From: Ignavibacteriota bacterium
GTDB lineage: Bacteria; Bacteroidota; Ignavibacteria; UBA10030; SZUA-254
Assembly: GCA_025358305.1 (NCBI GenBank)
Contig: JANYJZ010000030.1
Location: 96,382-160,381, forward strand
Reading direction: 5' to 3'
Length of the DNA: 64,000 nt
The notes below the pieces were generated by a model. That model had not been told where the DNA came from, did not search any database, and saw nothing but the letters and a program-made list of their open reading frames with translations. The translations under genes and the position numbers were made by a program. Positions 12,104-41,252 of this stretch are shown one piece after another. The stretch's first letter is position 1, and the number at the start of each line of letters is the position of its first letter.

Positions 12104-12175
12104 CTCCACAGGCGGGACTCGAACCTGCAACCCTCCGGTTAACAGCCGGATGCTCTACCATTGAGCTACTGTGGA
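12104..12175 (-). tRNA. tRNA-Asn (anticodon GTT)
   Basis: The minus-strand sequence TCCACAGTAGCTCAATGGTAGAGCATCCGGCTGTTAACCGGAGGGTTGCAGGTTCGAGTCCCGCCTGTGGAG folds as a cloverleaf. The D-arm is TAGCTCAATGGTAGAGC, the anticodon loop cTGTTAAc, the T-loop GGTTCGAGTCC, and the acceptor stem is 7 bp. The T-stem has one A-C mismatch. Confidence 0.8.
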
Positions 12176-23975: not shown

Positions 23976-26228
23976 ATGAGACTCATATTTTTACTCACAG
24001 GCCTCCTCCTCTGCGCTCTGCCGGCCCGATCGAACGCAGGGACCTTTCAGAGAGTTGAGGGGACGCTCAGCGGGTTCGTTCGCGATAGCGCCAACGGCGA
24101 GTCGATCCCCTTCGCGTCGGTATACATCAAGGGATTGAAGATCGGGACGGCCACCAACGCGGAAGGCTACTTCGCCATTCCCAACGTACCCGACGGTGAA
24201 CATGAGGTCCAAGTCTCCATCGTCGGATATCTGCCGTCGCTCTTTGTCATTGCGGTCGAGAACGGTGCCGACATCGTCCACAATATCTCCCTCGTCGCTC
24301 AGTCGGTGGACATTCCGCAGGTAGTGGTGACGGCCGACCTCGAGGAGGAGCGGCGCGCGACGCAAACGAGCCACGTGATCCTCCAAGCGGCCGATGTGAC
24401 GACGATGCCGACGGTGGGGGAGCCGGACATCTTTCGCGCGCTCCAGCTCATGCCCGGCGTCAAAGCAACTTCCGAGATCTCCAGCGGGCTGAACGTCCGA
24501 GGGGGGAGCACCGACCAGAATCTCATCCTGCTCGATGGGACCGTCGTGTACAATCCATCGCACTTCTTTGGGTTCTTCAGCACGTTCAATACTGACGCTG
24601 TCAAGGATATCGACCTCATGAAGGGAGGCTTCCCGGCCGAATACGGCGGGCGGCTCTCCTCAGTGCTCAACGTGACGAACATCGACGGGGACCGGATGAA
24701 GAGCCGCGGCAAGGCGTCCATCAGCCTCCTGAGTACCCGGCTCACCGGTGAGGGGCCCGTCGGGGACGGATCCTGGTTCCTCTCCGCCCGGCGGACCTAC
24801 TTCGACCAGTTCATCTCTCTGGCGCATCTCGACACCGGCAAGGACGCTCTCCCGCTCTACTACTTCTACGATGCGAACTTCAAGCTCAATCAGAATTTCG
24901 GACAGAACGACAAGCTCTCCATCGTCGGCTATCTCGGCCAGGACAACCTTGATTGGAAGATCGGGAAGAATGAACTCGCCATCGATATGTCGTGGGGCAA
25001 CCGCACCGGCGCGCTGAAGTGGACGCACGTGTTCAGTCCGACCGTCTTCTCGAACATCATGGCCACCTACAGCAGATACACCGCGGCGATCGGCGTCGGA
25101 TTCAGCGGATCGCACTTCGAACAGGACAACGGGGTCGACGACTATTCGCTGCGAACCGATGTCGACTTCTTCGTGACGAACGACCATTTTATGAAACTCG
25201 GGGCCTGGTGGTCCGCCTACCGGGTCTCGTATCAGCAGTTCAGCGATGGCGACCCGTACGTCTTCCTCAACCGCCCCTCCCAGATCGCCCTCTACGCGGA
25301 GGACGAGTGGCAGTACGACCTGCGGTGGAAGATCCAGTACGGATTCCGGTTTGAATACCAGAACCTCTCCCGGTCCTCCACTATCGGCCCGCGGTTGAAC
25401 CTGCACTATGCGATCAGCGACAATACATCTCTGAAGTTCGCCACGGGGTTCTACCACCAGTATCTCACCGCGGTACCGGCCGGCACCGACAATGGGTTCT
25501 CCCCGTTCGATATCTGGGTCCCGATCAACGACAAGATGAAGACAAGCCGAGCCTACGACCTTGTCATGGGGTACGAAACGAAGAACATCGCCGATATGGT
25601 CGTGACGCTTGAGGCATATTACAAGAAGTTCAACAACATCCTCTACTTCAGAAACGAGATCACGGATTCCAGGGATGTGAGCGACCTCTTCTACACCGGC
25701 TCGGGCGACGCGTACGGCGTGGAACTCTTCCTGAACAAATCGGTCGGCCGTCTCACCGGCATGATCGGTTATACGCTTGCCTGGACCAACCGGAGGTTCC
25801 CTGAACTGAATCGCGGTGCGTCGTTCATGCCGAAGTATGACAGGAGGCACGATCTCTCGGTCACGGCATCATACGCCCTGAGCCCGGACTGGAAGATCGG
25901 ATCGGCATTCACCTACCAGACCGGGCAGCCCTATACTACCGGCGTGGCTCGCTACCAGGTGGATGCGAACGGCGCAATGTTCAGCCAGACCCTGCCCGGC
26001 CCCCTGTTCAACCGCCGCCTTTCGGCGTACAATCGTCTCGATTTCATGATCTCCAAGAGAATGTCGATCTTCGGACTCCAGGGAAGCTGGTACATCCAGG
26101 TCTACAACATCTACAGCCGGCGGAACGTCTGGTTCAAGCAATTCGATGATGCGAAGAACCCCGCGGAGGTCTCCGACGTCAAACTTCTCCCCATCATCCC
26201 GACGGTGGGGATGGAGGTATCGTTCTGA
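23976..26228 (+). CDS. TonB-dependent receptor with an N-terminal carboxypeptidase-regulatory-like domain
   Basis: Signal peptide. A CarbopepD_reg-like segment (GTLSGFVRDSANGESIPFASVYIKGLKIGTATNAEGYFAI), a plug, and a 22-strand barrel ending in an aromatic residue (MEVSF). Confidence 0.85.
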   Translation: MRLIFLLTGLLLCALPARSNAGTFQRVEGTLSGFVRDSANGESIPFASVYIKGLKIGTATNAEGYFAIPNVPDGEHEVQVSIVGYLPSLFVIAVENGADIVHNISLVAQSVDIPQVVVTADLEEERRATQTSHVILQAADVTTMPTVGEPDIFRALQLMPGVKATSEISSGLNVRGGSTDQNLILLDGTVVYNPSHFFGFFSTFNTDAVKDIDLMKGGFPAEYGGRLSSVLNVTNIDGDRMKSRGKASISLLSTRLTGEGPVGDGSWFLSARRTYFDQFISLAHLDTGKDALPLYYFYDANFKLNQNFGQNDKLSIVGYLGQDNLDWKIGKNELAIDMSWGNRTGALKWTHVFSPTVFSNIMATYSRYTAAIGVGFSGSHFEQDNGVDDYSLRTDVDFFVTNDHFMKLGAWWSAYRVSYQQFSDGDPYVFLNRPSQIALYAEDEWQYDLRWKIQYGFRFEYQNLSRSSTIGPRLNLHYAISDNTSLKFATGFYHQYLTAVPAGTDNGFSPFDIWVPINDKMKTSRAYDLVMGYETKNIADMVVTLEAYYKKFNNILYFRNEITDSRDVSDLFYTGSGDAYGVELFLNKSVGRLTGMIGYTLAWTNRRFPELNRGASFMPKYDRRHDLSVTASYALSPDWKIGSAFTYQTGQPYTTGVARYQVDANGAMFSQTLPGPLFNRRLSAYNRLDFMISKRMSIFGLQGSWYIQVYNIYSRRNVWFKQFDDAKNPAEVSDVKLLPIIPTVGMEVSF

Positions 26229-26296
26229 TGCTGATCGCCGCTCACACGAGAAACAGCAAGAACCTCCGACCGCACGCGATCGCACTTCTTCGCGCC

Positions 26297-27145
26297 ATGA
26301 CCCGTGCCGTCGCCGTCGCGCTCATACTGCTCATTGCCGTGCTCTCAGGCTGCGATGAAGCAACGTCGCCCTTTGATTACCGGCGGGAAGTTGTCGTGAA
26401 CGCGACCCTCGTCGCAGGCGAACATTTCGCCGACGTGTTCCTGACATGGTCCGGCAGGGTCGATGAGTATTACAGTCCTTTGGGCTTGGGGATCCGGGGA
26501 GCGCTCGTCATCATCAGCGACGCCCAAGGAGTGTTCGCCGATACGCTTCTCCCCGATAACGGCTACCCTGGACGCTACACCTCCGCGTCCTTCCGATCGG
26601 TGCAGCCTCGTCAAACGTACAATCTCTATGTCAGGACCCAGGAACCCGACGTACGGGTCGTCACCGGCACCACGAGCGTTCCCGATACCTTTCGCATCAC
26701 CGCATCGACGCTGCACAACGGGGACAGGGTCCGCTACGATCTGGACGCGCCCGTCCATTCGTTCGCATGGTCGACCTGCGGGAACTTTTCCGCCTATCTC
26801 CCGACCGTGTGGTCGATGGACGCGAATCCTGCGCTCATACCAAAGGCGTATTACGGCGACACCGCGAGCGCGACCTTCAAACGGCCGAGCCGCACCGTCT
26901 ACCGCATCGGACTCCCAAAGACGCAAACGAACACCGATGTTCCCTGGCTGTTCCTGAATTATTATGGGAGGACGAGATTTGATATCTTTGCCGTGGACGA
27001 GAACTTGGCTGACTTCCTCCGCCAGTGGCTGGCGCTGCAGACGGGGGAGCTGAAGGAGATCCGCTACAAGCTCCAGGGTGGGATCGGCTTGTTCTGTTCC
27101 AAGTCGCGTGCGGAGAACGGCGTTGAGGTCTATTTTGTGAAGTGA
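26297..27145 (+). CDS. DUF4249-family lipoprotein (a frequent partner of TonB-dependent receptors in the FCB group)
   Basis: Lipobox LSGC. The size, composition and position immediately after the receptor are typical of DUF4249. The start is set to M24; the ORF in the track begins at 26228. Confidence 0.5.
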   Translation: MTRAVAVALILLIAVLSGCDEATSPFDYRREVVVNATLVAGEHFADVFLTWSGRVDEYYSPLGLGIRGALVIISDAQGVFADTLLPDNGYPGRYTSASFRSVQPRQTYNLYVRTQEPDVRVVTGTTSVPDTFRITASTLHNGDRVRYDLDAPVHSFAWSTCGNFSAYLPTVWSMDANPALIPKAYYGDTASATFKRPSRTVYRIGLPKTQTNTDVPWLFLNYYGRTRFDIFAVDENLADFLRQWLALQTGELKEIRYKLQGGIGLFCSKSRAENGVEVYFVK

Positions 27146-27226
27146 AGAGGACTCGACGGGGAACAGCATCGGTGTTGTTCTCCGCAGACGGGCAAGAAGA
27201 AGGAATGCTTCTCGCTACCAAACGTA

Positions 27227-27262
27227 GCGAATCCCGCCGTCATATCGACAGCGGGATTCGCT
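27227..27262. repeat. 12-bp perfect-stem hairpin in a 350-nt convergent intergenic region
   Basis: agcgaatcccgc-[12 nt]-gcgggattcgct. Confidence 0.4.
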
Positions 27263-27495
27263 CTCCCTAGTCCACCTATCACAATCTACTGCACGTGAAG
27301 ATGCTACCTTGTTCTACCGTTCATATCGTATTTGCAAGATCCGTGCCACTGCCTGCGGAAGGCGCCGAGAAGAAGAAATGAGGCAACAGGACCGTTATTG
27401 ATGATGTGTTGATCCCAGGGGTCGCGCCGGAAAAGGGGGAGCTGCCAACATATCGGCAGAGGTGCCGTGCAGTTGGCACGGGGGGGAATAATCGA

Positions 27496-28944
27496 TCAGC
27501 GGGTGATGCCGAGCTTCTTCATTTTCGCCTGGAGCGTCGTCCGGTTGAGCCCGAGGATCTCCGCCGCCCGGGTCTGGTTCCAGTCGACGCGCTCGAGGAC
27601 CTTCACGATATGCTGCCGCGTCGTCGCACCGAGGTCGTTCGCATCGACCACGTCCGCATCGGGAAGATAAAAATCGCCGATGACCGACGGGTGTTCTGAA
27701 AGGAGGAGGGCCTTCCGGGCGATGTTCTGGAGTTCGCGAACGTTGCCGGGGAAGGGGTAGCGCTGGAGCGCCGAGATCGCCTCGGCGGTCGGGGACTTCG
27801 CGGGGAGATTGTTCTCAGCGCAGAAGGCCTTCAGGAAGTGCATCGTCATAGGGACGATGTCGTCGGGGCGGTCCCGCAGGGCGGGAAGGCGGATCTCCAC
27901 CCCGCAGAGGCGGTAGTACAGGTCCTGCCGGAACGCGCCGTCCCGGATCGCGTCCCGGATATTCCTGTTCGTCGCGCTGATGACGCGAACATTGACGAAC
28001 CGGTACTGTGTGTCGCCGACGCGCCGGATCTCCCCCTCTTGGAGGACGCGCAAGAGCTTCGACTGGAGGGCCGGCTGCATGTCGGCGATCTCGTCGAGGA
28101 AGATCGTCCCTCCGTCCGCCTCCTCGAAGAGCCCCTTCGTGTCAGCGACGGCCCCCGTGTAGGCCCCTTTCCGGGCGCCGAAAAGTTCGGCCTCGAGGAT
28201 CTGCTCCGGAAGAGCGCTGCAGTTGATCGGAACGAACCGCTTGTCCCGCCGCGGACTCTGGTAATGGATCGCCCGCGCCACAAGCTCCTTGCCGGTGCCG
28301 CTTTCGCCCGTGACGAGGACGCTGACGTTCGTCGAGGCGACGGCCTGTACCTGGTCGCAAACGCCGTGCATCTCGCGGCTGACGCAGATAATGTTGTCGT
28401 AACGGTACTTCCCGACCGCCTCCCCCTTCCAGTACCGCGCCTCGTCCCTCGTCGCCTCAAAGCGCCGCGCGTTCTGGATCGCGATCGCGGCGAGGTTCGC
28501 GAAGGTCTGCAGGAAGCTCACATCCTCGGCCGTGAAGACCTTCGTGACCTTGCGGCTGTCGAGGTAGATCGTACCGATGATCGCGTCCTTGTCCGCGAGC
28601 GGCACGCAGAGGATGGAGAGGATCTTGAACTCCTTCACGCTGTCGCGGCCCATGGTGTTCGGATCGTTCTGGACGTTCGAGGACAGGAAGTACCGGCCGC
28701 TCGACGCCACTTCGGTCGTAATGCTCCGGCTGATCTCGGTCGCGTTCTCCAGCGTCTCACGTTCCACGTTCCGCGCCGCCTTCGGCTGGAGGACGCCGTC
28801 GCCGTCTTTGAGGAAGAGGACGCCGCGTTCGACGCCCACCGCGGTGATCGCCGAGTCCATGATCGTCTCGAGGAGCTCGTCGATGTCGAGGAGCGAGTTG
28901 ATCGCCTTGCTGATCGCGATGAAGGATGCGAGCGTCTTTTCCAT
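27496..28944 (-). CDS. Sigma-54-dependent transcriptional activator (GAF sensor, AAA+, Fis-type HTH)
   Basis: The start is set at MEKTLASF (28944). GAF domain at the N-terminus. Sigma-54 interaction motifs GESGTGKE and GAFTGA-like ARKGAYTGA, plus RVISATNRN. C-terminal helix-turn-helix AAEILGLNRTTLQAKMKKLGI. Confidence 0.85.
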   Translation of the reverse strand: MEKTLASFIAISKAINSLLDIDELLETIMDSAITAVGVERGVLFLKDGDGVLQPKAARNVERETLENATEISRSITTEVASSGRYFLSSNVQNDPNTMGRDSVKEFKILSILCVPLADKDAIIGTIYLDSRKVTKVFTAEDVSFLQTFANLAAIAIQNARRFEATRDEARYWKGEAVGKYRYDNIICVSREMHGVCDQVQAVASTNVSVLVTGESGTGKELVARAIHYQSPRRDKRFVPINCSALPEQILEAELFGARKGAYTGAVADTKGLFEEADGGTIFLDEIADMQPALQSKLLRVLQEGEIRRVGDTQYRFVNVRVISATNRNIRDAIRDGAFRQDLYYRLCGVEIRLPALRDRPDDIVPMTMHFLKAFCAENNLPAKSPTAEAISALQRYPFPGNVRELQNIARKALLLSEHPSVIGDFYLPDADVVDANDLGATTRQHIVKVLERVDWNQTRAAEILGLNRTTLQAKMKKLGITR

Positions 28945-28952
28945 TGTGAAAT

Positions 28953-31772
28953 TTATTGAAAAACCGCCTGCCAGGCAAGTCGCTCGGTGTGCACGCCCTG
29001 GAACAGCACCTTGACGGCCCCGCCGTCGAGGGAGACCTCGGAATGCCGGACCGGCGCCCGCACGACCGACAGGGCCATGCCCGGAGGGATGTAGAGGACG
29101 ACGGCGTACTCCCCGGGCATGAGCTTTTCGCACGCGACCGAGAGGGTCTTGGTCTTGGGGTTCCACTGCACGTCCGCAAGGTCCACCGCCCCCTGCGTCA
29201 GGTGGCGGGAAGTGGAGAGGACGAACGGCTCAAGCGACACCTCATGGACCGCGTAGAGACCGCACGATGTCGGTGGAAGCGTGACCGAACGTGACGTGCC
29301 GAGTTCTCCGAGATAGACCCCGTTCCAAAAATCATACGCGACGTAACTCTTCCTGGGAGGAAGCCCGAGGCGTTCCGGCGTCAGCGGCAGGCGCCGCTCC
29401 CCGGACGACCAGTTGAAGAGCCCTACCGCGTTCCACTTGCCGAACTTCTTCCCGACCGGGAGGTTCCAGACCGTCGGGAGCGCCGTCTCCTGTGTACTGT
29501 AGAATCCGCCGGGTCCGCCTCCGTCAAAGACCCGAAGTGCGACGGTGTTCTCTTGTCCGCGGCGCAGGAGCGCTTCCGGGACGGCATACCTGCGGAACGA
29601 CTGCCACTGCGAATCGTACTCGGGCGGGAACGTCCCGGTCTTGCCGACGAGCTGTCCGTTCCAGTACGTCTGGTCGCAGTCGTCGATCTTCCCGAGCAGG
29701 AGCTCCGACGCTCCGGCCGGCCAGTCCGCGGGGAGCGTGAAGCGCGCCCGGTACCAGACGAGACTGTCGAGCCCCGGAAAACCGTTGTCTTCCCACTGCG
29801 AAGGGACAGGCATGTCGCTCCAGCGGCTGTCGTCGTACGATGGCTCCTTGCGCTCCTCGCCGTCGCCCGGGAGGAACTTCCACACCGCCGGCAGGGAGAG
29901 GGAGGCGCCGTGGTCCGGCGAGAGGAGCGTCAGCCCGTGTTCGTGCGGAGCCGTAAAGAGGTCGACCGGATCGGCTGCGACGCCGTAGCTCGGGATCGTC
30001 AGTGTAAGCAGGTCGATCCTGTCTTGGGGGAGCGCGGGAAGCTTGTCGCTCAACAGCGTCATCTGTCCCGAAAGCGCGACGACCGAGGCCCAGACGCGCG
30101 CCTGGTCTGTCGTGAGCGGTTCGCGCACGAGAAGGCAGTCGGGGTCGTCGTACCAGACGGCGTTGTGATAGAAGAACCGTTCCGCAGCGGCGTGAATGCC
30201 GGGAGTGACGCCGTCCCATCGTGCGGAGACGTCGGAGCCGATACGCATCCCGTCGACGAACCCCATCGAACTGCCCAAGGGCGCGCCGCAGCCGAGGATG
30301 AACTTGTCGGGTCCCACCCCTTTCCGGATCGCGCGCAGGCCCATCTGGTACGCCTGTGCAGACGAGACCGGGATGTGGTACGACCCTCCTTCGCCGGCAA
30401 AGTAGAGAAAATCGATCTTCACATAGTCGTAGCCCCACTTCGCGGTGACGGTGTAGAAGAGGTTCTCGAGCCAGAGCTGCACCGCCGGGATCGTCGGATC
30501 GAGGGCGTAGATCCTCCCGCCCCACCAGTCGTTCGCGAAGAACTCCTTGAGCGAATCATGCTCGTTCCTCAGAAGCCACTCCGGATGCCGCTTGACGACG
30601 GAACTGCTTTCCGCGACGGCGAACGGCGCGAGCCAGAGGCCCGCCTGGAACCCCTTCTTGTGGATCTGGTCGACGAGCCAGCGGTGCCCGTGGGGGAAGC
30701 GCTTGTTCGTGTTCCATTCCCCCGCGGCGATCTGGTACCCGTCGTCGATCTGGATGTACTGGAGCCCCGCCTTCTTCAGCTGCCGCGACGCCGTTGTGAC
30801 GTTCTGGAGGATGCTGTCCTCGGCAATGTGCTGGTAGTAATAGTACCAGGAGCACCATCCGGTCGGGACGTTCTGATTGCCAAAGAGCGCCGCGGGGGCC
30901 TTGCCGGTGGGGCTGAAGGGCTTGTTCTGCGCTGGCGCGAACTTCTGCTGGTACTCCGCGAACCGGCGCAGGTTGTCGTTCGGCGACGGGTCGAAGGCGA
31001 TCATGAGCGGGTCGGTCTCGAGCGTGCCGCCCGCCGGGACCGCGAGCGTTTTGATGTCGGAGGCCGTCGCGAGATGCTGGCTCCCGTCCGAGGGGAGGAG
31101 CCCATCGGACCGGATGCTGTTCGTCGCGCGGGCGTTCGTCAGGAACCCCAACAGGAGGGACTTCCAGGCCTGCGGCTCGTAGAAAAGCGTCGACCAGAAG
31201 CTCGTCTGCGAACGGACGGAGTCGAGCTTCACCACCTCGCTCGAACTCCAGGACTGATACCCGTTGACGTGCATGAGGACCGTGTCCGTCACGTACTGGA
31301 TGTGGGCCGCGCCGTGAAGGTCGATGAGCCGAAACTCCCTCGGCCTCCACTCGTGGCCCGAGACGTTCTTCAAGGCGGCGGAGACGAGGAGGAGCTTTCG
31401 TTCGTTGTAGAGGTTCACCCCGATGTCCCATTCCGCCTTGTCGTCGCTAGCGCGGAGATCAAGCCGCCTCCCCTTTCCGATCGAATCGTCGATCGCGGTG
31501 ATCTTCGCGAGGATCTCTCCGGAGGTGAGATCGAACGAGAGCGAATCGCTCTCCCTGAACCCCAAAACGGAGGTAGCACCGACGATGACCGGCTGCCAGT
31601 CGTTCGACTCGAACTCGAGGACGCTCCAGAGCTTCGTGCCCTTATCGAAGGAGACCTTGAGGAGCCCGTTGTCGAATTCGACGCGCTTCGGCTGGGCCGT
31701 AAGGGCGGCGGCAAGGATGGCGGTGATGGCCCCCGTGAGCAGCAAACGACGCATGAGAGCTCGCATATCCAC
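28953..31772 (-). CDS. Alpha-galactosidase (GH36/melibiase-like) with an additional carbohydrate-binding domain
   Basis: Signal peptide. GWCSWYYYY and IQIDDGYQ are melibiase catalytic-region motifs, with KIDF and CGAPLG further on. The C-terminal segment resembles a galactose-binding-like domain. Confidence 0.7.
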   Translation of the reverse strand: MDMRALMRRLLLTGAITAILAAALTAQPKRVEFDNGLLKVSFDKGTKLWSVLEFESNDWQPVIVGATSVLGFRESDSLSFDLTSGEILAKITAIDDSIGKGRRLDLRASDDKAEWDIGVNLYNERKLLLVSAALKNVSGHEWRPREFRLIDLHGAAHIQYVTDTVLMHVNGYQSWSSSEVVKLDSVRSQTSFWSTLFYEPQAWKSLLLGFLTNARATNSIRSDGLLPSDGSQHLATASDIKTLAVPAGGTLETDPLMIAFDPSPNDNLRRFAEYQQKFAPAQNKPFSPTGKAPAALFGNQNVPTGWCSWYYYYQHIAEDSILQNVTTASRQLKKAGLQYIQIDDGYQIAAGEWNTNKRFPHGHRWLVDQIHKKGFQAGLWLAPFAVAESSSVVKRHPEWLLRNEHDSLKEFFANDWWGGRIYALDPTIPAVQLWLENLFYTVTAKWGYDYVKIDFLYFAGEGGSYHIPVSSAQAYQMGLRAIRKGVGPDKFILGCGAPLGSSMGFVDGMRIGSDVSARWDGVTPGIHAAAERFFYHNAVWYDDPDCLLVREPLTTDQARVWASVVALSGQMTLLSDKLPALPQDRIDLLTLTIPSYGVAADPVDLFTAPHEHGLTLLSPDHGASLSLPAVWKFLPGDGEERKEPSYDDSRWSDMPVPSQWEDNGFPGLDSLVWYRARFTLPADWPAGASELLLGKIDDCDQTYWNGQLVGKTGTFPPEYDSQWQSFRRYAVPEALLRRGQENTVALRVFDGGGPGGFYSTQETALPTVWNLPVGKKFGKWNAVGLFNWSSGERRLPLTPERLGLPPRKSYVAYDFWNGVYLGELGTSRSVTLPPTSCGLYAVHEVSLEPFVLSTSRHLTQGAVDLADVQWNPKTKTLSVACEKLMPGEYAVVLYIPPGMALSVVRAPVRHSEVSLDGGAVKVLFQGVHTERLAWQAVFQ

Positions 31773-31787
31773 CTCGCTAAGGAATGA

Positions 31788-34700
31788 TCAGAACGTGACC
31801 TTCAGTGTCACCATCGAATGCTTCTTCGTGTGGACCCGGACGGTCGTGCCGTTCGAGGGCACCGGCGTACCGGTCCCCTCGAGCGCGTCGGAGAGCACGA
31901 CCTTCGACGGCGCCTTCGGCAGCGTCAGTTCTCCGTCGGCATCCTTCCCTTCGGCGTCGTACCACTGGATGATCCACGCATCCTCGTCCTCCGCCTTCTT
32001 CACCGTCGTGAGGATGAGCGACCCCGGCGAGAGCGCCACGAACGAATGCGACGCCGGCAGCGTCCGCGCACTCCCCTTGGCGGCCATCACCGGGATGAGA
32101 GGGTTGTTGTACTCGTACCCGCGATGGACGGTCATCGAGGATCCAACGCGTCCCTCGTGGGGATAGAGGGCGTAGTCGATCGAATGCTTGCCCCGGTCCG
32201 CCGTTGGATCGGGCCACTTCGGAGACCGCAGGAGCGAGAGCTGCGCGACGTTCCCCTTGATGTCGTAGCCGTACTTCGAGCGGTTGAGGAGGCTCACCCC
32301 GTAGTCGTCCTGGGAGAGGTCCGCCCAGCGCTGGGCGGGGACTTCCACTTTCGCGCTGTCCCAGCTGTTCCGCCATCCGGTCGACCGCCGGATCGAGCCG
32401 AACGGGATCTCGTAGGTCGCGGCGGTGTCGGTCACGGCCAGCGGGAAGGCGACCTTCGCCATCGTCTTCTCCTCCCACCAGTCGATGTTCGTCGTGAAGT
32501 CGATCCGGTCGAGGTTCTGATAGAGGATGACGTCCTGAGTGATGAACGTCGACGGAAAATCCTCCGTCGGGAAGTCCTTCTTTGTCCCGGGTTTGAGGTA
32601 GTCGCGCGTCATACGGATGACCGAGCGGACGGGACCCCGTTCGACGATCTCGACCTTCCGGAGCGTCGTCGGATACTGGACGCCCGTGAGTCCGATGTTC
32701 CAAGCGTCCCACGCCGACGGCGTATCCTGGAGAAACTGCAGCTCGTTCCCCGCGCCGGTGAGGAGTTCCCGGCCCCTGCGCTTGTCGACGAGGCTTTTGA
32801 GCCAGCCGCTCGCCGGATCGACCTCCGCCCGGAAGAGCGGGCTTTCGATGACGCTGCCCGGAGCAGCGGCAGCGGCGGCGGCGTCAGCCGCGGCCGCCGG
32901 GCCCGTCCTGAGTTCGTAGACCTTGTAGCCGATAGGGGGAACGTCGTCCGCGACGAAGAGAAGCTTGTGGCGTCGCGGGCCGTCGCTCACGATTTGGGAG
33001 GGCACGGCCGTCCCTCGATCGTCCGCCACCGAGTACTGCGGCGGCGAACTCCCTTCGGGGAGATCGAGCGTGACGAGGTCCGAGCGCTTCCAGGCGAGCG
33101 CGTTGAAGACGACGACCGGCGTCCCCTTCACCGACGGGGCTTTGACGGCGCCGGCGATCTGTTCAAGGGACGCGCGAAGCTCGGACGTTCCGATCGACAT
33201 GGACGCCGCGTACCGCTCCGCCGCGTCGATGTAGATCTCGCGGATGCCGGAGCCGGGAAGCAGGTCGTGGAACTGGTTGAAGAGCACCCCTCTCCAGGCC
33301 TCCTCGAGGTCCGCTCCCCGGTACGGCTTCCCGTAGAGGGTGGCGAGCGTCGAGAACTTCTCCGCGTTCGTCAGGAGGACCTCGCTGCGGCGGTTGTTGC
33401 TCTTCATCGCCGACTGTGTCGTGTACGTTCCCTGATGGTACTCAAGGTAGAGTTCGTCCTTCCACACCGGAAGGTTCGCCAGGTCCTGCTGCCGGATCCA
33501 GGAAAGATAGGTTCCGGTGTTGCCATACTCGATCGTGGGGTAGATGTCGATCGTCTTCAAGCGTTCGATGCGGTCGATCATCTCGAGCGAGGGTCCGCCG
33601 CCGTGGTCGCCGACGCCGAAGAGGATCATCATCTTTGTCATGCCGGTGTTCGCCTCGAACTGCCGCGACCAGTCGACGAGCTGGTACGGGTCGTCGATCG
33701 TGTTCACATAGTCGAACGGGAAGTAGCTCAGGACCCGCGACCCGTCGGGGGACTCCCACCAAAAGAGGCGGTACGGAAACACGTTCGTCGCGTTCCATCC
33801 GATCTTCTGCGTGATGAAGGCATCGATGCCGGCGTTCTGATAGAACATCGGCATGTTCCCGTTGTACCCGAACGAATCGGGGTTCCAACCGATCTTCACG
33901 TCGGCGCCGAGGCTCTTCCGGAAGTAGCGCTTCGCGTAGAGAAGGTGGCGCATCCATGATTCGCCGCTAGGCAGATTGCAGTCGGGCTCGACCCACATGC
34001 CGCCCGTGACCTCCCACCGGCCTTCCGCGACCCTCTTCTTGATCCCCTGGAACAGGTCGGGATAGAGCTTGTCCATCCAGTCGTAGTACGCGGCGGCGCT
34101 CTGCGTGTAGGTGAACTCGGGGCGCGCGTTCATCATGTTGAGGACGGAGGAGAACGTGTTCCGGACGACCTGCTTCGTCTCCGCGTCCCGCCAGAGCCAT
34201 GCGGCGTCGATATGCGCATTCGCGTCGAAATAGAGCGTGAACTTCCGCGCGTACTCGCTCACCGGACGCAAAAGCGGCCTGATCACGTCGACCGAGCGGC
34301 GGTATCCGGCGGCGTCTCCCGCGGCGAGGGCCTTCACGTCCACCCGAGCCGCAAGCGACTGGAGAAGGTCGTTCAGCCGGAGCTTTTCCGTGCGGTCCAT
34401 ATGGGACCGGTCGGTCCCCGGATCAAGCTTTCGCCGGGCGTTCGTCTGGTACGTGTCGAAGCTCAGGAGCTTCTGGCCGACGCGCAGCGACAGAGAGAGG
34501 TCCTCGATGCTCTGGCGGAGCTCCTTCGACGCGGCGGTCGTGACTTCGGCGCGGATGAGCCGGAGCGGACCGCCCGTGTTGATCGCCTTGATGACGATGA
34601 GGAACTTTTGGCCCGGGGAGGCGTTGCGCGTCAGCTCGAAATCGCCGTCCCACGGGAACATCCCTTTGCTCTCCCCGTTCACCCAGAGGTACCCGTAGTC

Positions 34701-35027
34701 GTCGACGGAGAGGAGAAGCCGCACAGGGCCGCTGATCGGGGCCCCGAGGACGTTCTGGGGGAGGACGATCTCCTTCCGAATCCAGCAGGAATCGGGGTAG
34801 ATCGATTCATTGAGGGAGAGGGTGTTCCACTGCGCATCGTCGAACCCGGGCTTCGTTGGGGCGTCCCCGATGGACCGGAGCCCCTTGAGATCGGCGCTCA
34901 CCTTCCAGTGGTTGAACGAAAGGCTGCCGAGGGAGTCGAGGGCGCCGGCGAGGCGGTCGACGTTCGTTTGCGCCGGCGAGAGCTGAAGGGCGACGAAGAG
35001 CGCCAGGAGAACGGTGAGAGTTTTCAT
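31788..35027 (-). CDS. Alpha-mannosidase, glycoside hydrolase family 38
   Basis: 1079 aa with a signal peptide. GWNPDSFGY and GVGDHGG are GH38 catalytic motifs. The overall length and the C-terminal beta-sandwich domain fit GH38. Confidence 0.8.
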   Translation of the reverse strand: MKTLTVLLALFVALQLSPAQTNVDRLAGALDSLGSLSFNHWKVSADLKGLRSIGDAPTKPGFDDAQWNTLSLNESIYPDSCWIRKEIVLPQNVLGAPISGPVRLLLSVDDYGYLWVNGESKGMFPWDGDFELTRNASPGQKFLIVIKAINTGGPLRLIRAEVTTAASKELRQSIEDLSLSLRVGQKLLSFDTYQTNARRKLDPGTDRSHMDRTEKLRLNDLLQSLAARVDVKALAAGDAAGYRRSVDVIRPLLRPVSEYARKFTLYFDANAHIDAAWLWRDAETKQVVRNTFSSVLNMMNARPEFTYTQSAAAYYDWMDKLYPDLFQGIKKRVAEGRWEVTGGMWVEPDCNLPSGESWMRHLLYAKRYFRKSLGADVKIGWNPDSFGYNGNMPMFYQNAGIDAFITQKIGWNATNVFPYRLFWWESPDGSRVLSYFPFDYVNTIDDPYQLVDWSRQFEANTGMTKMMILFGVGDHGGGPSLEMIDRIERLKTIDIYPTIEYGNTGTYLSWIRQQDLANLPVWKDELYLEYHQGTYTTQSAMKSNNRRSEVLLTNAEKFSTLATLYGKPYRGADLEEAWRGVLFNQFHDLLPGSGIREIYIDAAERYAASMSIGTSELRASLEQIAGAVKAPSVKGTPVVVFNALAWKRSDLVTLDLPEGSSPPQYSVADDRGTAVPSQIVSDGPRRHKLLFVADDVPPIGYKVYELRTGPAAAADAAAAAAAPGSVIESPLFRAEVDPASGWLKSLVDKRRGRELLTGAGNELQFLQDTPSAWDAWNIGLTGVQYPTTLRKVEIVERGPVRSVIRMTRDYLKPGTKKDFPTEDFPSTFITQDVILYQNLDRIDFTTNIDWWEEKTMAKVAFPLAVTDTAATYEIPFGSIRRSTGWRNSWDSAKVEVPAQRWADLSQDDYGVSLLNRSKYGYDIKGNVAQLSLLRSPKWPDPTADRGKHSIDYALYPHEGRVGSSMTVHRGYEYNNPLIPVMAAKGSARTLPASHSFVALSPGSLILTTVKKAEDEDAWIIQWYDAEGKDADGELTLPKAPSKVVLSDALEGTGTPVPSNGTTVRVHTKKHSMVTLKVTF

Positions 35028-35079
35028 ATGAGTTCCCGTAGAGGATGGTCAGATGCGGCCGCGCGCGGAGCGCGCGGCA

Positions 35080-35691
35080 CTAATTGAAATTGACGGTCAC
35101 GCCCACTTCCAGCCGGATGCCGCCGAAGTCGCCGGAGAAGCCTCGGTCGAGCGAGCGGCGGTATTCGTAGAGGATGTCGGAGTAGATCGACAGTCCTCCG
35201 GTGCCGAGGATGTGTTCAAGCCCGACGCCGCCGAAGTACCCGAACCTCTTCGGGAGCGCGCGTTCCTGGCTGCCGCCGAGGGGGCCGAAGGACGATTCGC
35301 TGACCGTGGAATAGCTGGCCCCTCCCTGGAAGCGCACCGCCTCCCGCTTGGAGAAGAATACCTTGTTGAGCAGCCCGAGGTGGATGAAGCGCTCCCGGAT
35401 CTTCAGCGAACTGTCCGCCGGGGCGTCGATGGGCGCCTCCGAGGCGAACCATGCGATATCGGTCACGAGGTAGAGATAATCGTCGGTGATCGGGAATGCG
35501 ACCCCGAACCCCCAGATAATATCCGAACCCGTCTTGTACGATTCACGAAAGTTCTCCCGGGAAGGAAAGAAGAGCCCGCCGTGGACGTGGTAATAGAAGG
35601 GCAGGCGCGATTCGGTGAACTGCGCCAACGCGGAGGAGTTCCCTGCGAGGAGCGAACCGCAGAGGAGCCACGAAAGAAGGAAGGTCTTCAT
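35080..35691 (-). CDS. Outer membrane beta-barrel protein (OmpA-like/porin-family barrel)
   Basis: Signal peptide MKTFLLSWLLCGSLLAGNSSALAQ, alternating amphipathic beta-strands, and a C-terminal aromatic residue (VNFN). The start is set to M13. Confidence 0.5.
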   Translation of the reverse strand: MKTFLLSWLLCGSLLAGNSSALAQFTESRLPFYYHVHGGLFFPSRENFRESYKTGSDIIWGFGVAFPITDDYLYLVTDIAWFASEAPIDAPADSSLKIRERFIHLGLLNKVFFSKREAVRFQGGASYSTVSESSFGPLGGSQERALPKRFGYFGGVGLEHILGTGGLSIYSDILYEYRRSLDRGFSGDFGGIRLEVGVTVNFN

Positions 35692-35723
35692 GATATTCCT
35701 GAAAATGAGTGGGTACACATGGT

Positions 35724-36681
35724 TCATCGCCCCCGCAGCCGGTCGAGGAGCACGGCGGAGAGGATCACCACGCCCAGGAGGATCATCTGGACGTAGGAGC
35801 TGACGTTCATGAGGTTGAGGCCGTTGCGCAAGACGCCGATGAGCATCGCCCCGATGAAGGTCCCGACGACCGACCCTCTGCCACCGAAAAGGCTCGTCCC
35901 GCCCACGACGACGGCGGCGATGACGTCAAGCTCGTACATCTGTCCGGCGTTCGGCTGGCCGGAGTTCATCCTCGACGCCAGGAGGATCCCGCTGAACGAG
36001 GCGAGCATGCCGCAGAGCATGTAGACCTTGAGCACGACGCGGTCCGTCGGAACGCCGGAGAGCCGCGCCGCTTCAGGGTTTCCGCCGACGGCGTAGACGT
36101 GCCGTCCGAAGCGCGTGCGGTCGAGGACGACGTACGCGGCAACATAAACGATGACCATGCAGATCGTCGGGACGGGGACGCCGAAGAGCCGTCCGCTGCC
36201 CAGAAGGCTGAACGCATCGGGGAGGCCCCAGACCGGCCTGCCATCCGTGAACATGTAGGCCGCCCCGCGCCAGATCGTCATGAGCGCCAAGGTCACGATG
36301 AACGGCGTGATCTTGAGCTTCGTGACGAATGTCCCCGCGAGCGCGCCTGAGAACGCGCCGATGGCGAGTCCCGACAGGACGACACAGAGGAGCGCGACGG
36401 GATACGGCGCGTTCATCTTTAAGACCGTCGTCACGATAACGCCCGTGAACGCCACGATCGCACCGACGGACAGGTCGATGCCCGCAGTGAGGATGACGAA
36501 GGTCATCCCCACCGCGATGATGGCGATGATGGAGGTCTGGAGCGATATGTTGAGGATGTTCTCCGCGGTGAAGAAGTAGGGCGAGAGAAGGGCGAAGAGG
36601 CCGATCTCCGCCGCCAGTACGATGGCGATGCCGAACTCGCCGACGAGCGCCTTGAAGGTCTTCGAGGAGCGGGTCACGGAC

Positions 36682-36689
<8 letters not shown>
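35724..36689 (-). CDS. Sugar ABC transporter permease (RbsC/XylH-like, BPD_transp_2 family)
   Basis: Transmembrane-rich, with an IGGTSLFGGRGSV motif. The start is assigned to the GTG that overlaps the ATPase gene stop. The ATG at 36797 would overlap the ATPase gene by 115 nt. Confidence 0.7.
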
Positions 36690-38190
<1,501 letters not shown>

Positions 38191-39102
38191 CTAGTGCGCC
38201 GCGTTCAGGGATGCCGCGTCGACGATGCCGACCTCGACGGGGATCTTCTTCGGGAGTTGGGCTCCCGAGAAATATTCGCTGATCTTCATGATCGTCGTGG
38301 CGCCGATCTTCTTCGGATACTGCACGACGTCGGCCTTGAGGGCCGTGCCTTTTGTGATCGCGTCCACCGCCGGCGGCGTCGCGTCGTAGCCGACGATGCT
38401 GATCCCTGTTCGGTTGAACTGCTTGACCGCATCGAGCGCGCCGAGCGCGGAATCGTCGTTGATGCCGAACATGCCGTTGAGGTCGGGATGCGCCTGGAGG
38501 ACGTCGGCGGCGGCCTGCATCGCCATATCCCTCCTCCCTTCGCCGTTCACGTCCGCGACGATCTCCATGCCGGGATACTTCGCGACGGCGTCCTTGAACC
38601 CTTGGACGCGGTCGAGGACGGAGGTGATGGTGGGCTGGCCGATGATGGCGACCTTCCCCTTCCCGCCGAGCGCCTTGGCGAGGTACTCGCCTGCAAGGGT
38701 GCCGCCGGCGACGTTGTCGGAGGCGACGTGGCAGACGATCTCGCCCTCAAGCGAGGCGATGTCGGCCGTGAAGACCGGGATCTTCGCGTCATTTGCTTTC
38801 TTCACGGAGGGGCCGATCCCCCGGGAGTCGACCGGGCAGACGACGATCGCGTCCACCTTTCGCGCGATGAAGTCCTCGATCTGCGCGCTCTGCTTGCCGA
38901 GATCGAACTCCCCGGCGGTGACGATGAGCTCGTACCCGTGCTTCGCCGCTTCCGTCTGGAGCCCTTCTTCCAGGTCCTTGAAGAAGACGTGGGCCCGGGT
39001 CAGGAGCGAGACGCCGATGACCTTGGAGGCTTTCGCCTCTTTCTTGCCGCAGGAAATCGAGACGAGGGCGATCGCGAGGATGACGCAGAGGATTTTTTTC
39101 AT
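38191..39102 (-). CDS. Sugar ABC transporter substrate-binding lipoprotein (periplasmic binding protein type I, ribose/galactose class)
   Basis: Lipobox ISCG. The Peripla_BP_4 pattern (VIGVSLL..., AIVVCPVDS, KIPVFTAD) is present. Confidence 0.8.
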   Translation of the reverse strand: MKKILCVILAIALVSISCGKKEAKASKVIGVSLLTRAHVFFKDLEEGLQTEAAKHGYELIVTAGEFDLGKQSAQIEDFIARKVDAIVVCPVDSRGIGPSVKKANDAKIPVFTADIASLEGEIVCHVASDNVAGGTLAGEYLAKALGGKGKVAIIGQPTITSVLDRVQGFKDAVAKYPGMEIVADVNGEGRRDMAMQAAADVLQAHPDLNGMFGINDDSALGALDAVKQFNRTGISIVGYDATPPAVDAITKGTALKADVVQYPKKIGATTIMKISEYFSGAQLPKKIPVEVGIVDAASLNAAH

Positions 39103-39109
39103 ACAGCTC

Positions 39110-40066
39110 CTATGATGATGTGGTTCTTCTGTCGAGGATGACCGCCAGCACGATCACCAGGCCGATGGCGACCTGCTGCCAGTACGCGGAAACATCTAAT
39201 AATACTAAACCGTTGCGTAAAATGCCCATGAGGAGCGATCCGATGATGACCCCGAGGATCGTCCCGCGGCCACCGGTGAGGCTCACCCCGCCGATGACCG
39301 CCGCCGCGACCACGTCGAGCTCGTACCCGAGCCCCGCGGTCGACTGTCCAACCCCGAACCGCGAGGTGAAGAGGACCCCGGCGATCCCCGCGGCGAGCCC
39401 GCAGAGGGCATAGACGGCGATCTTGACGCGGTGGACGCTCACGCCGCTCAAGAGGGCCGCCTCCTCGTTGCCGCCGATGGCGTAGGTGTACCGCCCCCAC
39501 GGCGTCGACCGGAGGAGGAACCCGACGGTGGCCGCAAGAAGCGCCATGGCGAGGATCGGAATGGGCAGGCCGAGGATCTCGCCCTGGCCGATGAGGAGGA
39601 ATCCTGGTGGAAGGCTTCGGATCGTCTCGCCGCCGGTGATCGCGAACGCCAGGCCGCGGGCGATGCTCATCATGCCGAGCGTGACGATGAACGGCGGAAG
39701 CTTTGCGCGCGTGATGACAAGGCCGTTCAGGATGCCGCCGAACAGTCCGACGACGACGCCGGCGAGGACGGCGGCTGGGGTCCCGACGTTCGCATTGAGG
39801 AGGACCGCCGTGACGACACCGGAGAGCCCGAGGACGGAACCAACGGAGAGATCGATGCCGCCGGTGATGATGACGACGGCCTGTCCCACTCCCATGATGG
39901 CGATGAAGGAGAGGGCCCGGATGACCTGGGAAAGATTGGACCAGTTGAGGAAGGTGGACTCGAACCCGCTGCTGCCGCCGAAGGAGGAGGTGAGGATGGT
40001 CAGGAGCAGCACTTCGAGCAGGAGCGCGAGCCAGATGCCGAAGCGCATGGTCTTCAAAACCGGCAT
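39110..40066 (-). CDS. Second sugar ABC transporter permease (BPD_transp_2 family)
   Basis: Ten transmembrane helices and an IGGVSLTGGRGTI motif. It is the first gene of the permease-SBP-ATPase-permease set. Confidence 0.8.
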   Translation of the reverse strand: MPVLKTMRFGIWLALLLEVLLLTILTSSFGGSSGFESTFLNWSNLSQVIRALSFIAIMGVGQAVVIITGGIDLSVGSVLGLSGVVTAVLLNANVGTPAAVLAGVVVGLFGGILNGLVITRAKLPPFIVTLGMMSIARGLAFAITGGETIRSLPPGFLLIGQGEILGLPIPILAMALLAATVGFLLRSTPWGRYTYAIGGNEEAALLSGVSVHRVKIAVYALCGLAAGIAGVLFTSRFGVGQSTAGLGYELDVVAAAVIGGVSLTGGRGTILGVIIGSLLMGILRNGLVLLDVSAYWQQVAIGLVIVLAVILDRRTTSS

Positions 40067-40664
40067 GAATCCGCGAATTCTATGATGGAGGGTTCGATAA
40101 GCCGGGATATCTTACAAAGATTTAGCCCGTTTTGCAAGCCTCACACCGACGAACGACGGCCCGCTTCGAGGGTTCGTCCACATGTTATCAGTTTCAGGTA
40201 TTACAGCCGTGTCTCAGCGATGTGTGTTCTAAGCCGTGGACTGATATCCGCCAATCTGGGCACGAAAGCGCAATTCAAGGCATTGGACTTATCCGAACTT
40301 GTTACGAGACACGACAATGGTGCCGGTGACGGCATGAGGATTCAAGTGCCCCCTCAAGCACTTATTTTGGCCACTCTTATTGGCGAGAGATGAGCGGCCG
40401 AGAAGATCTTATTGGCCATCCGTCGGACTAAGTTTCAATACTCATAAATGCCTGATGGGTGATCACCTAATCCTGCTCACTATTTTTGAAATGCTCGATT
40501 GTCAGGAGGCTCAAGGCGGTTCGCGAATGTGATCATGTTGAGGCGGGAAGGAGCTGGCTTTCAGCGAACGAACACGTGCAACGAGGGAATCGCGAGAACG
40601 ATCGTGCGGGGCGGAAACAAAATGCGCCCCCGCCGCATGGTGGAGGGGGCGCATGGTCGAACGG

Positions 40665-41252
40665 TTACTCTTTCGTGACGGACCCGAGGAGCACGTCGAA
40701 GTCGGCCTTCGAGGCTTCGATCGTCTTATCCGGTCCGGTGAACTTGAAGAACACGCGGCCGTTCGGAGCATCAATGATGGCGCCGAGCAGCGAATAGTGC
40801 GCCTTCTTCCCCTGCGACTGCATCATTGGACCCGCGGGGGCGAGGTAGGTCCCCTTGATGACCACGTTCGTCACCTGCATGCCGTGCACTTCCGAGTTCG
40901 TCTGGGTCTTCCCCGTAACGCCCTCGAACTGCGCAGCCCAGCGATCGACATTCGCCTGCACGTCGCCCCCCTGGTTGGCGCCAAAGTAGTACGCAGCGCA
41001 TTCCCCCCCTTCGGCGTCGCCGCCGCCGGCGGGGACCGCGTACGTCCCGACGCGCATCGGCCGCTCTGCCTCGACGGTCCAGCTGCTCGGTACCTTCCAT
41101 GTGACCCCTCCTGCCGAGGTCGGGGTGGTCGCCGGCGCCTGACTCAGCATCGGCGGCTGTTGCTGTTGTGCCTGCTGTTCCTGGCCGTTCTTGTTGCAGC
41201 TGCTCAAGGCCAGCATGGTGGACATTAAAAGAATGATACGAAAACTCATCAT
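40665..41252 (-). CDS. Hypothetical lipoprotein
   Basis: Lipobox LALSSC, followed by a Gln/Pro-rich linker and a soluble domain of about 150 aa. No family was recognised. The start is set to M24. Confidence 0.45.
   Translation of the reverse strand: MMSFRIILLMSTMLALSSCNKNGQEQQAQQQQPPMLSQAPATTPTSAGGVTWKVPSSWTVEAERPMRVGTYAVPAGGGDAEGGECAAYYFGANQGGDVQANVDRWAAQFEGVTGKTQTNSEVHGMQVTNVVIKGTYLAPAGPMMQSQGKKAHYSLLGAIIDAPNGRVFFKFTGPDKTIEASKADFDVLLGSVTKE

Follow-up and report, generated by a model that had tools for sequence, protein, structure and literature searches.

Genes for sigma-54 activators that are located beside small RNA (sRNA) genes with activator-dependent promoters constitute a known arrangement, as exemplified by luxO-qrr1 and glrR-glmY. 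In Pseudomonas putida, crcZ is positioned immediately downstream of cbrB and is transcribed from two promoters, its own, which requires RpoN and CbrB, and that of cbrB, from which read-through transcripts are subsequently processed (PMC5113210). Here, we are describing a similar arrangement, known from sequence alone, in a 64,000-nt stretch of DNA from an Ignavibacteriota bacterium (contig JANYJZ010000030.1, positions 96,382 to 160,381; "the window" denotes this whole stretch), in which an eight-gene operon predicted to scavenge sugars ends in the gene of a GAF/sigma-54 activator and is followed by a conserved sigma-54 promoter and a candidate sRNA. With cbrB-crcZ, the locus shares an enhancer-binding-protein gene directly upstream of a (predicted) sigma-54-dependent sRNA; the differences concern the sensor, which is a GAF domain instead of a receiver domain, the RNA, which would be ~105 nt long with a purine-rich GGAYUAGGGAR motif, whereas crcZ is ~400 nt long with A-rich Hfq motifs, and the host, which belongs to an Ignavibacteria-like lineage and not to the Proteobacteria, with the activator gene attached to the end of a sugar operon. 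Neither in sequence nor by Rfam is the window sRNA related to crcZ. In our literature search, no sigma-54 activator beside its own sRNA was found for this lineage.

For the sugar part of the locus, several classes of described systems can be compared. With the Sus-like polysaccharide utilization loci (PULs) of Bacteroidota, the window shares co-localised glycosidases, uptake genes and a regulator gene, as well as a host of the Fibrobacterota–Chlorobiota–Bacteroidota (FCB) group with proteins that carry tails of the type IX secretion system (T9SS); however, it contains neither a SusC/SusD pair nor a hybrid two-component system (HTCS) or extracytoplasmic function (ECF)/anti-sigma regulator, and the nearby TonB receptor appears to be an unrelated insertion. 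The ABC-linked clusters of carbohydrate-active enzymes (CAZymes) of non-Bacteroidia, such as those of Thermotoga maritima TmGalA and the N-glycan loci of Streptococcus pneumoniae, likewise combine hydrolases and an ABC importer dependent on a substrate-binding protein (SBP) in one operon without SusC/SusD. The S. pneumoniae N-glycan loci comprise a glycoside hydrolase of family 38 (GH38) and ABC transporters (PMC5215778). Compared to these clusters, the window importer is of the CUT2 (carbohydrate uptake transporter 2; monosaccharide, Rbs-type) class and not of the CUT1 class, which is for oligosaccharides, both enzymes are exported, presumably to the periplasm of a diderm cell, and a gene for an outer-membrane (OM) beta-barrel is embedded in the operon. 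Escherichia coli RbsABC and YtfQRT-YjfF have in common with the window a Peripla_BP_4 SBP, a fused ATPase with two nucleotide-binding domains (NBDs) and BPD_transp_2 permeases; two different permeases are also found in YtfT/YjfF and LsrC/LsrD. In contrast to RbsABC and YtfQRT-YjfF, the gene order in the window is permease–SBP–ATPase–permease, and permease 1 is dispensable in some relatives.

Sigma-54 activator and candidate small RNA

The elements of the regulatory part are as follows:

27496..28941, minus strand: gene for a GAF / AAA+ sigma-54-interaction / HTH_8 activator, 481 aa (Pfam)
27443..27478, no strand assigned: probable enhancer (upstream activating sequence) of two TGCC-N8-GGCA palindromes, conserved in 11 loci
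27334..27348, minus strand: sigma-54 promoter TGGCACGGATCTTGC (-24/-12), a zero-mismatch match, conserved
27218..27323, minus strand: candidate sigma-54-dependent sRNA of ~105 nt (alignments A3 and A4, covariance model R1)
27226..27262, minus strand: intrinsic-terminator-type hairpin AGCGAAUCCCGC...GCGGGAUUCGCU, with compensatory pairs

The target of the activator appears to be the adjacent sigma-54 promoter, which would give rise to the candidate sRNA, and not the operon itself. The identity of the protein as a GAF/sigma-54 activator, assigned in the initial annotation of this DNA (a reading of 27496–40066 from the letters alone), is borne out by the Pfam domains Sigma54_activat (PF00158, 231 bits), GAF (71.5 bits) and HTH_8 (47 bits), and the features of a bacterial enhancer-binding protein are in place, including a Walker A motif (GESGTGKE) and a GAYTGA loop, which is a functional loop variant. 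The protein scores below every NCBIfam equivalog cut-off, with NifA (TIGR01817, 383 vs. 529) as the best model. An identity as NifA was rejected based on this score and on the lack of nif genes nearby; several source databases name orthologues of the activator "Nif-specific regulatory protein", which is probably an over-annotation. The orthologue group spans 62–100% identity. The best public relatives of the activator, as well as those of the GH36 enzyme of the operon, are metagenome-assembled genomes labelled Ignavibacteriae, Ignavibacteriales or Bacteroidota, or (mis)labelled Chlorobiaceae.

TGCC-N8-GGCA is matched exactly at just two places in the 64-kb window, and these make up the enhancer pair, which is spaced by 20 bp from centre to centre and situated immediately 3' of the activator stop codon and ~95–130 bp upstream of the sigma-54 promoter. 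Equivalently placed pairs are present in 11 of 11 orthologous loci (window, L081, L093, L001, L002, L082 and L097–L101), with the second site being off consensus by 1–2 positions in some of them; in alignment A2, the TGCC/GGCA half-sites are invariant. The promoter itself (27348–27334, minus strand), located 150 nt past the activator stop codon, is the sole zero-mismatch match to TGGCAC-N5-TTGC in the window, and TGGCA(C/T)-N5-(T/A)TTG is kept in all eleven loci. Use of canonical -24/-12 promoters is documented for the FCB group (PMC9723704).

A strong hairpin follows ~60–100 nt downstream of the sigma-54 promoter. The predicted sRNA is composed of a variable 5' part and a conserved, single-stranded, purine-rich motif, GGUGGACUAGGGAGAG (27275–27261), which is found ~60 nt past the predicted start and directly precedes the GC-rich, 12–16-bp terminator hairpin. 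The terminator stem has 16 consensus pairs, eight of which show compensatory double changes across six sequences, and T-rich tails are present 3' of the hairpin in most loci; the hairpin probably ends the sRNA and the operon transcript, too. The order enhancer pair–promoter–variable stretch–purine motif–terminator is maintained 3' of the activator gene in all eleven loci, at protein identities of 63–88%. Thus, each of them has the sequence hallmarks of a sigma-54/activator-dependent sRNA—a -24/-12 promoter, upstream sites and a terminator, next to the activator gene. This conserved candidate is located just outside the coordinates covered by the initial annotation. Since there is no terminator between the activator stop codon and the sRNA, a 3'-UTR (untranslated region)-derived form of the RNA, made via read-through, is possible as well.

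Covariance model R1 scores 55–88 bits in the eleven loci, on which it was also trained. Elsewhere in the 548 kb searched, no full-length match comes near these scores; if the same terminators read on the reverse strand are set aside, the best remaining match reaches 25.5 bits and is located inside an unrelated gene of L004. No extra copies of the sRNA are present in the window or in 31 loci. The search of the whole window with Rfam at gathering score returned no sRNA match, and with E ≤ 10, the region 27100–27520 gave only mir-1986 on the hairpin (27 bits vs. a gathering score of 50). The possibility that the short transcript encodes a small protein was rejected: the window has an open reading frame (ORF) of 50 codons, of which frame and start are not conserved (L001 has a stop and lacks a start). 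The purine motif is conserved at the nucleotide and not at the peptide level.

The operon, its promoter and its products

Upstream of the activator gene, the operon is composed of the following features:

40109..40137, minus strand: probable sigma-70-type operon promoter (conserved block, 7 loci)
39110..40066, minus strand: ABC permease 1, CUT2/RbsC-like, 318 aa (PF02653, 149 bits)
38191..39102, minus strand: sugar-binding protein (SBP), RbsB-like, probable lipoprotein, 303 aa (Peripla_BP_4, 202 bits)
36682..38190, minus strand: tandem-NBD ABC ATPase, RbsA/AraG-like, 502 aa (two ABC_tran domains)
35724..36689, minus strand: ABC permease 2, 321 aa (PF02653, 154 bits)
35080..35691, minus strand: 8-stranded OM beta-barrel, 203 aa (predicted fold; no Pfam match)
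31788..35027, minus strand: exported GH38 alpha-mannosidase, 1079 aa (four GH38 Pfam domains)
28953..31772, minus strand: exported GH36 alpha-galactosidase-type enzyme, 939 aa (TmGalA 1zy9, Melibiase)

ORF listing and translation recovered all eight co-directional minus-strand genes (40066–27496) at the boundaries given in the initial annotation, with intergenic gaps of 7, 0, -8, 32, 52, 15 and 11 nt, which is close to, but not exactly, the 8–35 nt given there. The GTG start of permease 2, placed by homologue lengths and sequence, overlaps the ATPase stop by 8 nt. Because the GC content at third codon positions (GC3) is 0.82–0.89 in the operon frames and much lower in the long opposite-strand ORFs, the former are preferred. 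The activator gene is probably co-transcribed with the operon, given that its start lies only 11 nt past the GH36 stop.

The operon is preceded, 40–70 nt upstream of its first start codon, by a block consisting of TTGCAA (40137–40132), a 17-nt spacer and TAAGAT (40114–40109), with an invariant CTTTG immediately 5' of the -10 box. The pattern TTG(ACA/CAA/CAT/ATT)-N16/17-TAAGAT with CTTTG has seven matches in 1.6 Mb, one per locus (window, L093, L095, L003, L096, L097 and L099) and always before the first ABC gene; the left hexamer varies between TTGACA, TTGCAA, TTGCAT and TTGATT, and the predicted 5' UTR in the window is ~36 nt long. L003 and L096 keep this block in the absence of the activator gene; therefore, the operon is probably transcribed from a sigma-70-type promoter that is independent of the activator. 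The consensus promoter scan did not list the block (8/12 matches, just below threshold), and the counts of the promoter and terminator consensus scans over 26900–40700 were no better than those for shuffled sequence. The initial annotation had the operon regulated by the GAF–sigma-54 activator and directed attention to a sigma-54 promoter upstream of 40066. Neither a -24/-12 promoter (TGGCAC-N5-TTGC, ≤2 mismatches) nor an activator-type site (TGCC-N8-GGCA, ≤1 mismatch) is found in 40067–40664, the conserved sigma-70-type box is present instead, and the recognisable sites of the activator are downstream of its own gene; thus, this part of the earlier interpretation is not retained. Looser sigma-54 candidates upstream of 40066 were rejected for want of a conserved GG at -24. 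Also rejected was a palindromic operator over the operon promoter (TTGCAAA-N12-TTTGTAA): in L097 and L099, its left arm shows variation of the kind seen in -35 boxes, which makes the promoter reading preferable.

The region upstream of the operon has a length of 598 nt (40067–40664), compared to 90–220 nt in relatives, and harbours two copies of the 10-nt direct repeat GCCAATAAGA, spaced by 32 nt (40375–40416). A terminator-like hairpin (40638–40622) is located 3' of the upstream lipoprotein gene. The search with Rfam (E ≤ 10, 40000–40700) gave no match in this intergenic region. Since L092 has an IS200-type transposase gene at the equivalent position, the long intergenic region may be a scar of mobile DNA.

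According to its domain content (Peripla_BP_4, fused double-NBD ATPase, BPD_transp_2 permeases), the transporter is classed as a CUT2 monosaccharide importer, and Pfam and NCBIfam corroborate the initial annotation of a four-gene sugar ABC importer with two different permeases. Its nearest NCBIfam neighbours are RbsA/B/C, AraG/H and GguA/B, with all four proteins scoring below every equivalog cut-off: RbsC is the best model for permease 1 (246 bits vs. 398) and reaches 326 for permease 2 against the same cut-off, RbsA gives 566 bits vs. 745 for the ATPase, and RbsB 190 vs. 337 for the SBP, which matches the ribose-binding protein 2ioy in PDB with E 2e-57. An identity as RbsABC ribose transporter was rejected because of these sub-cut-off scores and because, in the alignment with E. 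coli RbsB, four of the eleven positions that we take to be ribose contacts are changed (N13H, N64C, R90I and F164G) and seven kept. The designation "YtfQRT-YjfF-like" of the initial annotation is apt for the two-permease layout and less so for the sequences, of which the best NCBIfam models are Rbs (YtfQ 96 vs. 510, YtfR 492 vs. 850, YtfT 135–166 vs. 535, YjfF 165–192 vs. 363). The N-terminal signal sequence of the SBP ends in Cys, making it a probable lipoprotein. In a distant relative (P0018 contig), galT is located directly upstream of the importer, together with a second binding-protein gene, which hints at galactose as one cargo.

The 203-aa protein has no match in Pfam or NCBIfam. It possesses a signal peptide and a C-terminal aromatic signal, as is expected for an 8-stranded OM barrel, and its predicted structure is an 8-stranded antiparallel barrel of the OmpA/NspA/OmpW type. 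The family is small and clade-restricted, and its gene is always 3' of permease 2. The small OM beta-barrel of the initial annotation thus stands as a predicted fold, but its role as a route for glycans does not: because the OmpA/NspA/OmpW class has no sugar-sized pore, the modelled barrel is too small for a glycan channel. In alignment A1, invariant polar residues include S57, D58, D79, D94, R102, H105, K111, R121, E160, D173 and R194, and the lipid A deacylase PagL is among the fold neighbours; on these grounds, an enzymatic instead of a passive role is conceivable. In comparison with known OM barrels—NspA, the N-domains of OmpA and OprF, OmpW, PagL and Pfam OMP_b-brl (PF13505)—the window barrel matches no family model, its family is tiny, and it is fixed behind a sugar ABC permease gene. 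We know of no described parallel to an 8-stranded barrel in such a position.

All four GH38 Pfam domains exceed their cut-offs (PF01074 Glyco_hydro_38N 255 bits, PF09261 Alpha-mann_mid 83, PF07748 38C 190 and PF17677 38C2 36), and the motifs AHIDAAW and WNPDSFG, which presumably are the metal-binding and nucleophile motifs of GH38, are present. As the closest solved relatives in PDB are yeast Ams1 (7vqo, 6lz1; E 1e-120 to 1e-126) and the alpha-mannosidase 7ufr (E 1e-104), the enzyme is assigned to the Ams1/MAN2C1-like branch, to the architecture of which its 260-residue N-terminal region would belong. The second enzyme aligns with T. maritima TmGalA (1zy9) over residues 300–579 (E 9e-53); its segments GWCSWY, IDDGY, KIDF and RIGSD correspond to GWCSWY, IDDAY, KIDF and RIGPD of 1zy9, with KIDF and RIGxD, as we assume, contributing the nucleophile Asp and the acid/base Asp of GH36, respectively. 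Melibiase scores 45.3 bits (cut-off 27), Melibiase_C is matched too, and GH2_N remains sub-threshold (18.6 bits). An inserted beta-sandwich at residues ~630–763 is similar to the galactose-binding-like domain found in sialate O-acetylesterases (PDB 7kmm, E 3e-21). Both family assignments of the initial annotation, GH36 including its extra sugar-binding-like domain, are thereby supported. GH36 includes enzymes of other specificities besides alpha-galactosidase; hence, the protein is termed a TmGalA-type alpha-galactosidase homologue with predicted activity.

Also in agreement with the initial annotation, which had both glycosidases secreted, Sec-type signal sequences are found on GH38 (MKTLTVLLALFVALQLSPAQT), on GH36 and on their orthologues. 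Neither enzyme carries a Por_Secre_tail (T9SS tail) or a lipobox; hence, by default, both are presumably periplasmic.

The operon arrangement recurs in independent metagenomic genomes at 50–88% protein identity and is thus not a chance juxtaposition. The core that does not vary across loci consists of binding protein, ATPase, permease 2 and barrel, in this order. Permease 1 is optional (missing in L096, L097 and L099); GH38 usually follows the core, L096 excepted; and GH36 is present in a subset only, being missing in L097, L099 and the P0018 contig. In some relatives, one or two large multi-pass membrane proteins, with TPR repeats at the C-terminal end, are encoded between barrel and GH38 (L001 4604–6622, L006 4647–6701, L096 10809–12656, L098 1–3533); the window has no such gene. 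A GT-C glycosyltransferase identity of this protein was rejected, with GT87 reaching 17.8 bits vs. a cut-off of 25 and the rest matching the TPR part only (PDB, NCBIfam); it might link the locus to envelope glycosylation.

Between 27496 and 40664, there is no SusC/SusD-type pair, and the only nearby TonB receptor is on the opposite strand. The initial annotation had argued that such a pair would be expected and that the ABC importer replaces it. According to a metagenomic study, susCD are "scarcely detected" in CAZyme clusters of Ignavibacteriales, an order named in the labels of some relatives, and missing in Ca. Kapabacteria (PMC10576277); that Sus genes are lacking here is, therefore, to be expected rather than surprising. 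Overall, the enzyme and transporter calls of the initial annotation are confirmed, and its framing of a Sus replacement, along with operon control by the sigma-54 activator, is given up.

The flanking genes are unrelated to the operon and encode an ABC-F protein, a lipoprotein, T9SS-tailed peptidases, the opposite-strand TonB receptor, a Ser/Thr kinase and ClpB. GAF and phospho-signalling proteins are abundant in the region, comprising the GAF activator, the Ser/Thr kinase and two GAF-SpoIIE (PP2C-type) phosphatases; the genes of the latter (51699–53405 and 54303–55589, both minus strand) are found on either side of an ABM-domain gene, and one of the two phosphatases has an additional cyclic-nucleotide-binding domain. 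A tRNA gene (12104–12175, minus strand) is the sole Rfam match at gathering score in the window.

Proposed pathway and alternative explanations

We consider it moderately probable that the locus, taken as a whole, is a sugar-scavenging operon with a sigma-70-type promoter and a terminal activator that fires an adjacent sRNA, in the manner of cbrB-crcZ. In this scheme, the operon would serve an Ignavibacteria-like diderm for the scavenging of alpha-linked mannosyl and galactosyl sugars: after small oligosaccharides or glycosides have passed the OM, GH38 and GH36 would cleave hexoses from them; the released monosaccharides would be captured by the membrane-anchored, RbsB-like SBP with its altered ribose pocket and imported by the CUT2 transporter with its two different permeases, with the barrel being a fixed genetic partner of the ABC genes. 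The GAF domain would receive a signal, upon which the activator would bind the two TGCC-N8-GGCA sites past its own stop codon and fire the -24/-12 promoter to yield the ~105-nt, terminator-ended sRNA. This unit would thus form the 3' end of an operon for sugar uptake and precede the gene of a Ser/Thr kinase with its own promoter.

Several points weigh against this proposal. It leaves the OM crossing of the substrates unexplained, and mannose or galactose catabolic genes are absent from the 64-kb window. The sRNA is a prediction, as are its 5' end and its activator dependence. Both for the whole sRNA and for its motif, pairing with translation-initiation regions (operon genes and kinase; window, L093 and L092) is no better than background. 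The operon and the activator module are separable—the former is found without activator in L003, L005, L006, L014 and the P0018 contig, the latter, with sRNA and kinase, without the operon in L082, L100 and L101—and the functional tie between sugar and sRNA may, therefore, be weak. As L096 has the ABC-plus-barrel core without any glycosidase, the importer substrate need not be the product of the glycosidases. Finally, a weak hairpin with T5 in the last GH36 codons (28955–28979, minus strand) could reduce read-through into the activator gene; such sites are no commoner than in shuffled sequence.

Concerning regulation, the initial annotation implies a dedicated activator of the eight-gene operon that would use a -24/-12 promoter located upstream of 40066. 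Activators are often encoded beside their targets, and the activator gene accompanies the operon in 9 of 12 orthologous loci, 8–42 nt past the last glycosidase gene (window, L001, L081, L093, L095, L097, L098 and L099) or 200 nt past it (L002). In the window and in L093, a GG is even found at -24 spacing before the -35-like TTGCA (CGGTGT-N5-TTGCA and TGGCCG-N5-TTGCA, respectively). However, this GG is missing in L095, which has the activator, and in L003, L096, L097 and L099, while the -35/-10-type block is kept in all of them, including the loci devoid of the activator; in conjunction with the empty 598-nt upstream region and with the paired sites and the perfect promoter downstream of the activator gene, this makes operon control very unlikely. 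Alternatively, the sigma-54 promoter could serve the Ser/Thr kinase-TPR gene further downstream (21315–23669, minus strand; its true start in the window, 23669, is 70 codons inside the longest ORF), the ~105-nt element then being a leader or attenuator. The kinase gene is orthologous in all loci (78% identity to the L093 orthologue) and, in 10 of 11, lies on the same strand 100–300 nt past the hairpin; the order activator–element–kinase is the most conserved feature of the neighbourhood. On the other hand, the long, 16-pair GC-rich stem with its T-rich tails is at odds with a leader, and a separate TTGCTT-N17-TATATT block (~23785–23745 in the window) is conserved between hairpin and kinase start in every locus. 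Furthermore, the window harbours a TonB receptor (CarboxypepD_reg and Plug, 23976–26228) and a 305-aa partner (together 23976–27145, plus strand) between sRNA terminator and kinase promoter, a position that is empty in the other ten loci; the pair looks like an insertion, and its partner protein, labelled DUF4249 in the initial annotation, matches neither Pfam nor NCBIfam. Despite these 3.2 kb of opposite-strand genes, the sRNA module of the window is intact and, at 87 bits, ranks second in score among the eleven, which favours a free-standing sRNA and leaves the kinase leader unlikely.

Concerning the sugar part, the locus could trim and recycle mannose- and galactose-containing glycoconjugates of the cell's own envelope, with the monosaccharides being re-imported. 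Such a function would suit an OM barrel with many invariant charged residues and PagL among its fold neighbours, a locus that encodes no OM glycan importer, glycosidases that are exported without a secretion tail, and the membrane/TPR protein with its sub-threshold GT87 match between barrel and GH38 in L001, L006, L096 and L098. We regard it as quite unlikely, given that the glycosyltransferase assignment is unsupported, that the respective gene is missing from the window, and that galT beside the importer in one relative fits catabolism. It has a similarly low probability that importer–barrel unit and glycosidases are independent of each other and share a transcript through genome compaction only, the cargo being another monosaccharide. 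The nearest relatives of the SBP are, indeed, ribose-binding proteins, and, of the two glycosidases, the ABC–barrel core is accompanied by neither in L096 and by GH38 alone in L097, L099 and the P0018 contig. Yet, the order ABC–barrel–GH38 is kept, with short gaps, down to ~35–60% protein identity, and four of the eleven presumed ribose contacts of the SBP are changed. Moreover, CUT2 importers carry monosaccharides, which are what exo-glycosidases release; thus, cargo and enzyme products would coincide.

Known classes and biological meaning

Neither part of the locus is categorically new. The sugar part belongs to the known class of ABC-linked CAZyme clusters, in which the CUT2 importer, the exported enzymes and the embedded OM barrel are unusual, and the regulatory part to the known class of sigma-54 activators next to their own sRNA. 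On the glycan side, the addition is modest: Ignavibacteria-like bacteria, which are largely devoid of Sus systems, may pair periplasmic exo-glycosidases with a monosaccharide ABC importer, and attention is drawn to an uncharacterised OM barrel family that is genetically fixed to this importer.

The more useful result concerns regulation. Naively, the activator would be annotated as the regulator of the operon, yet the conserved enhancer and promoter point to a new sRNA, a caution that gene adjacency alone is a poor basis for inferring regulon membership. This offers a concrete entry point to regulation by sigma-54 and sRNAs in a phylum for which no characterised riboregulators are known. As a tentative extension, the activator, tandem enhancer, -24/-12 promoter and GGAYUAGGGAR RNA may together form an undescribed riboregulatory module of Ignavibacteria-like bacteria, in which the sRNA, owing to transcription of the activator gene as the tail of the operon, would report operon activity and the metabolite sensed by the GAF domain and would control other carbon-use or envelope genes post-transcriptionally, as an analogue of CbrB/CrcZ; the kinase might join this circuit. 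If true, the FCB superphylum would thereby gain its first reported family of sigma-54-dependent sRNAs, as far as literature searches show.

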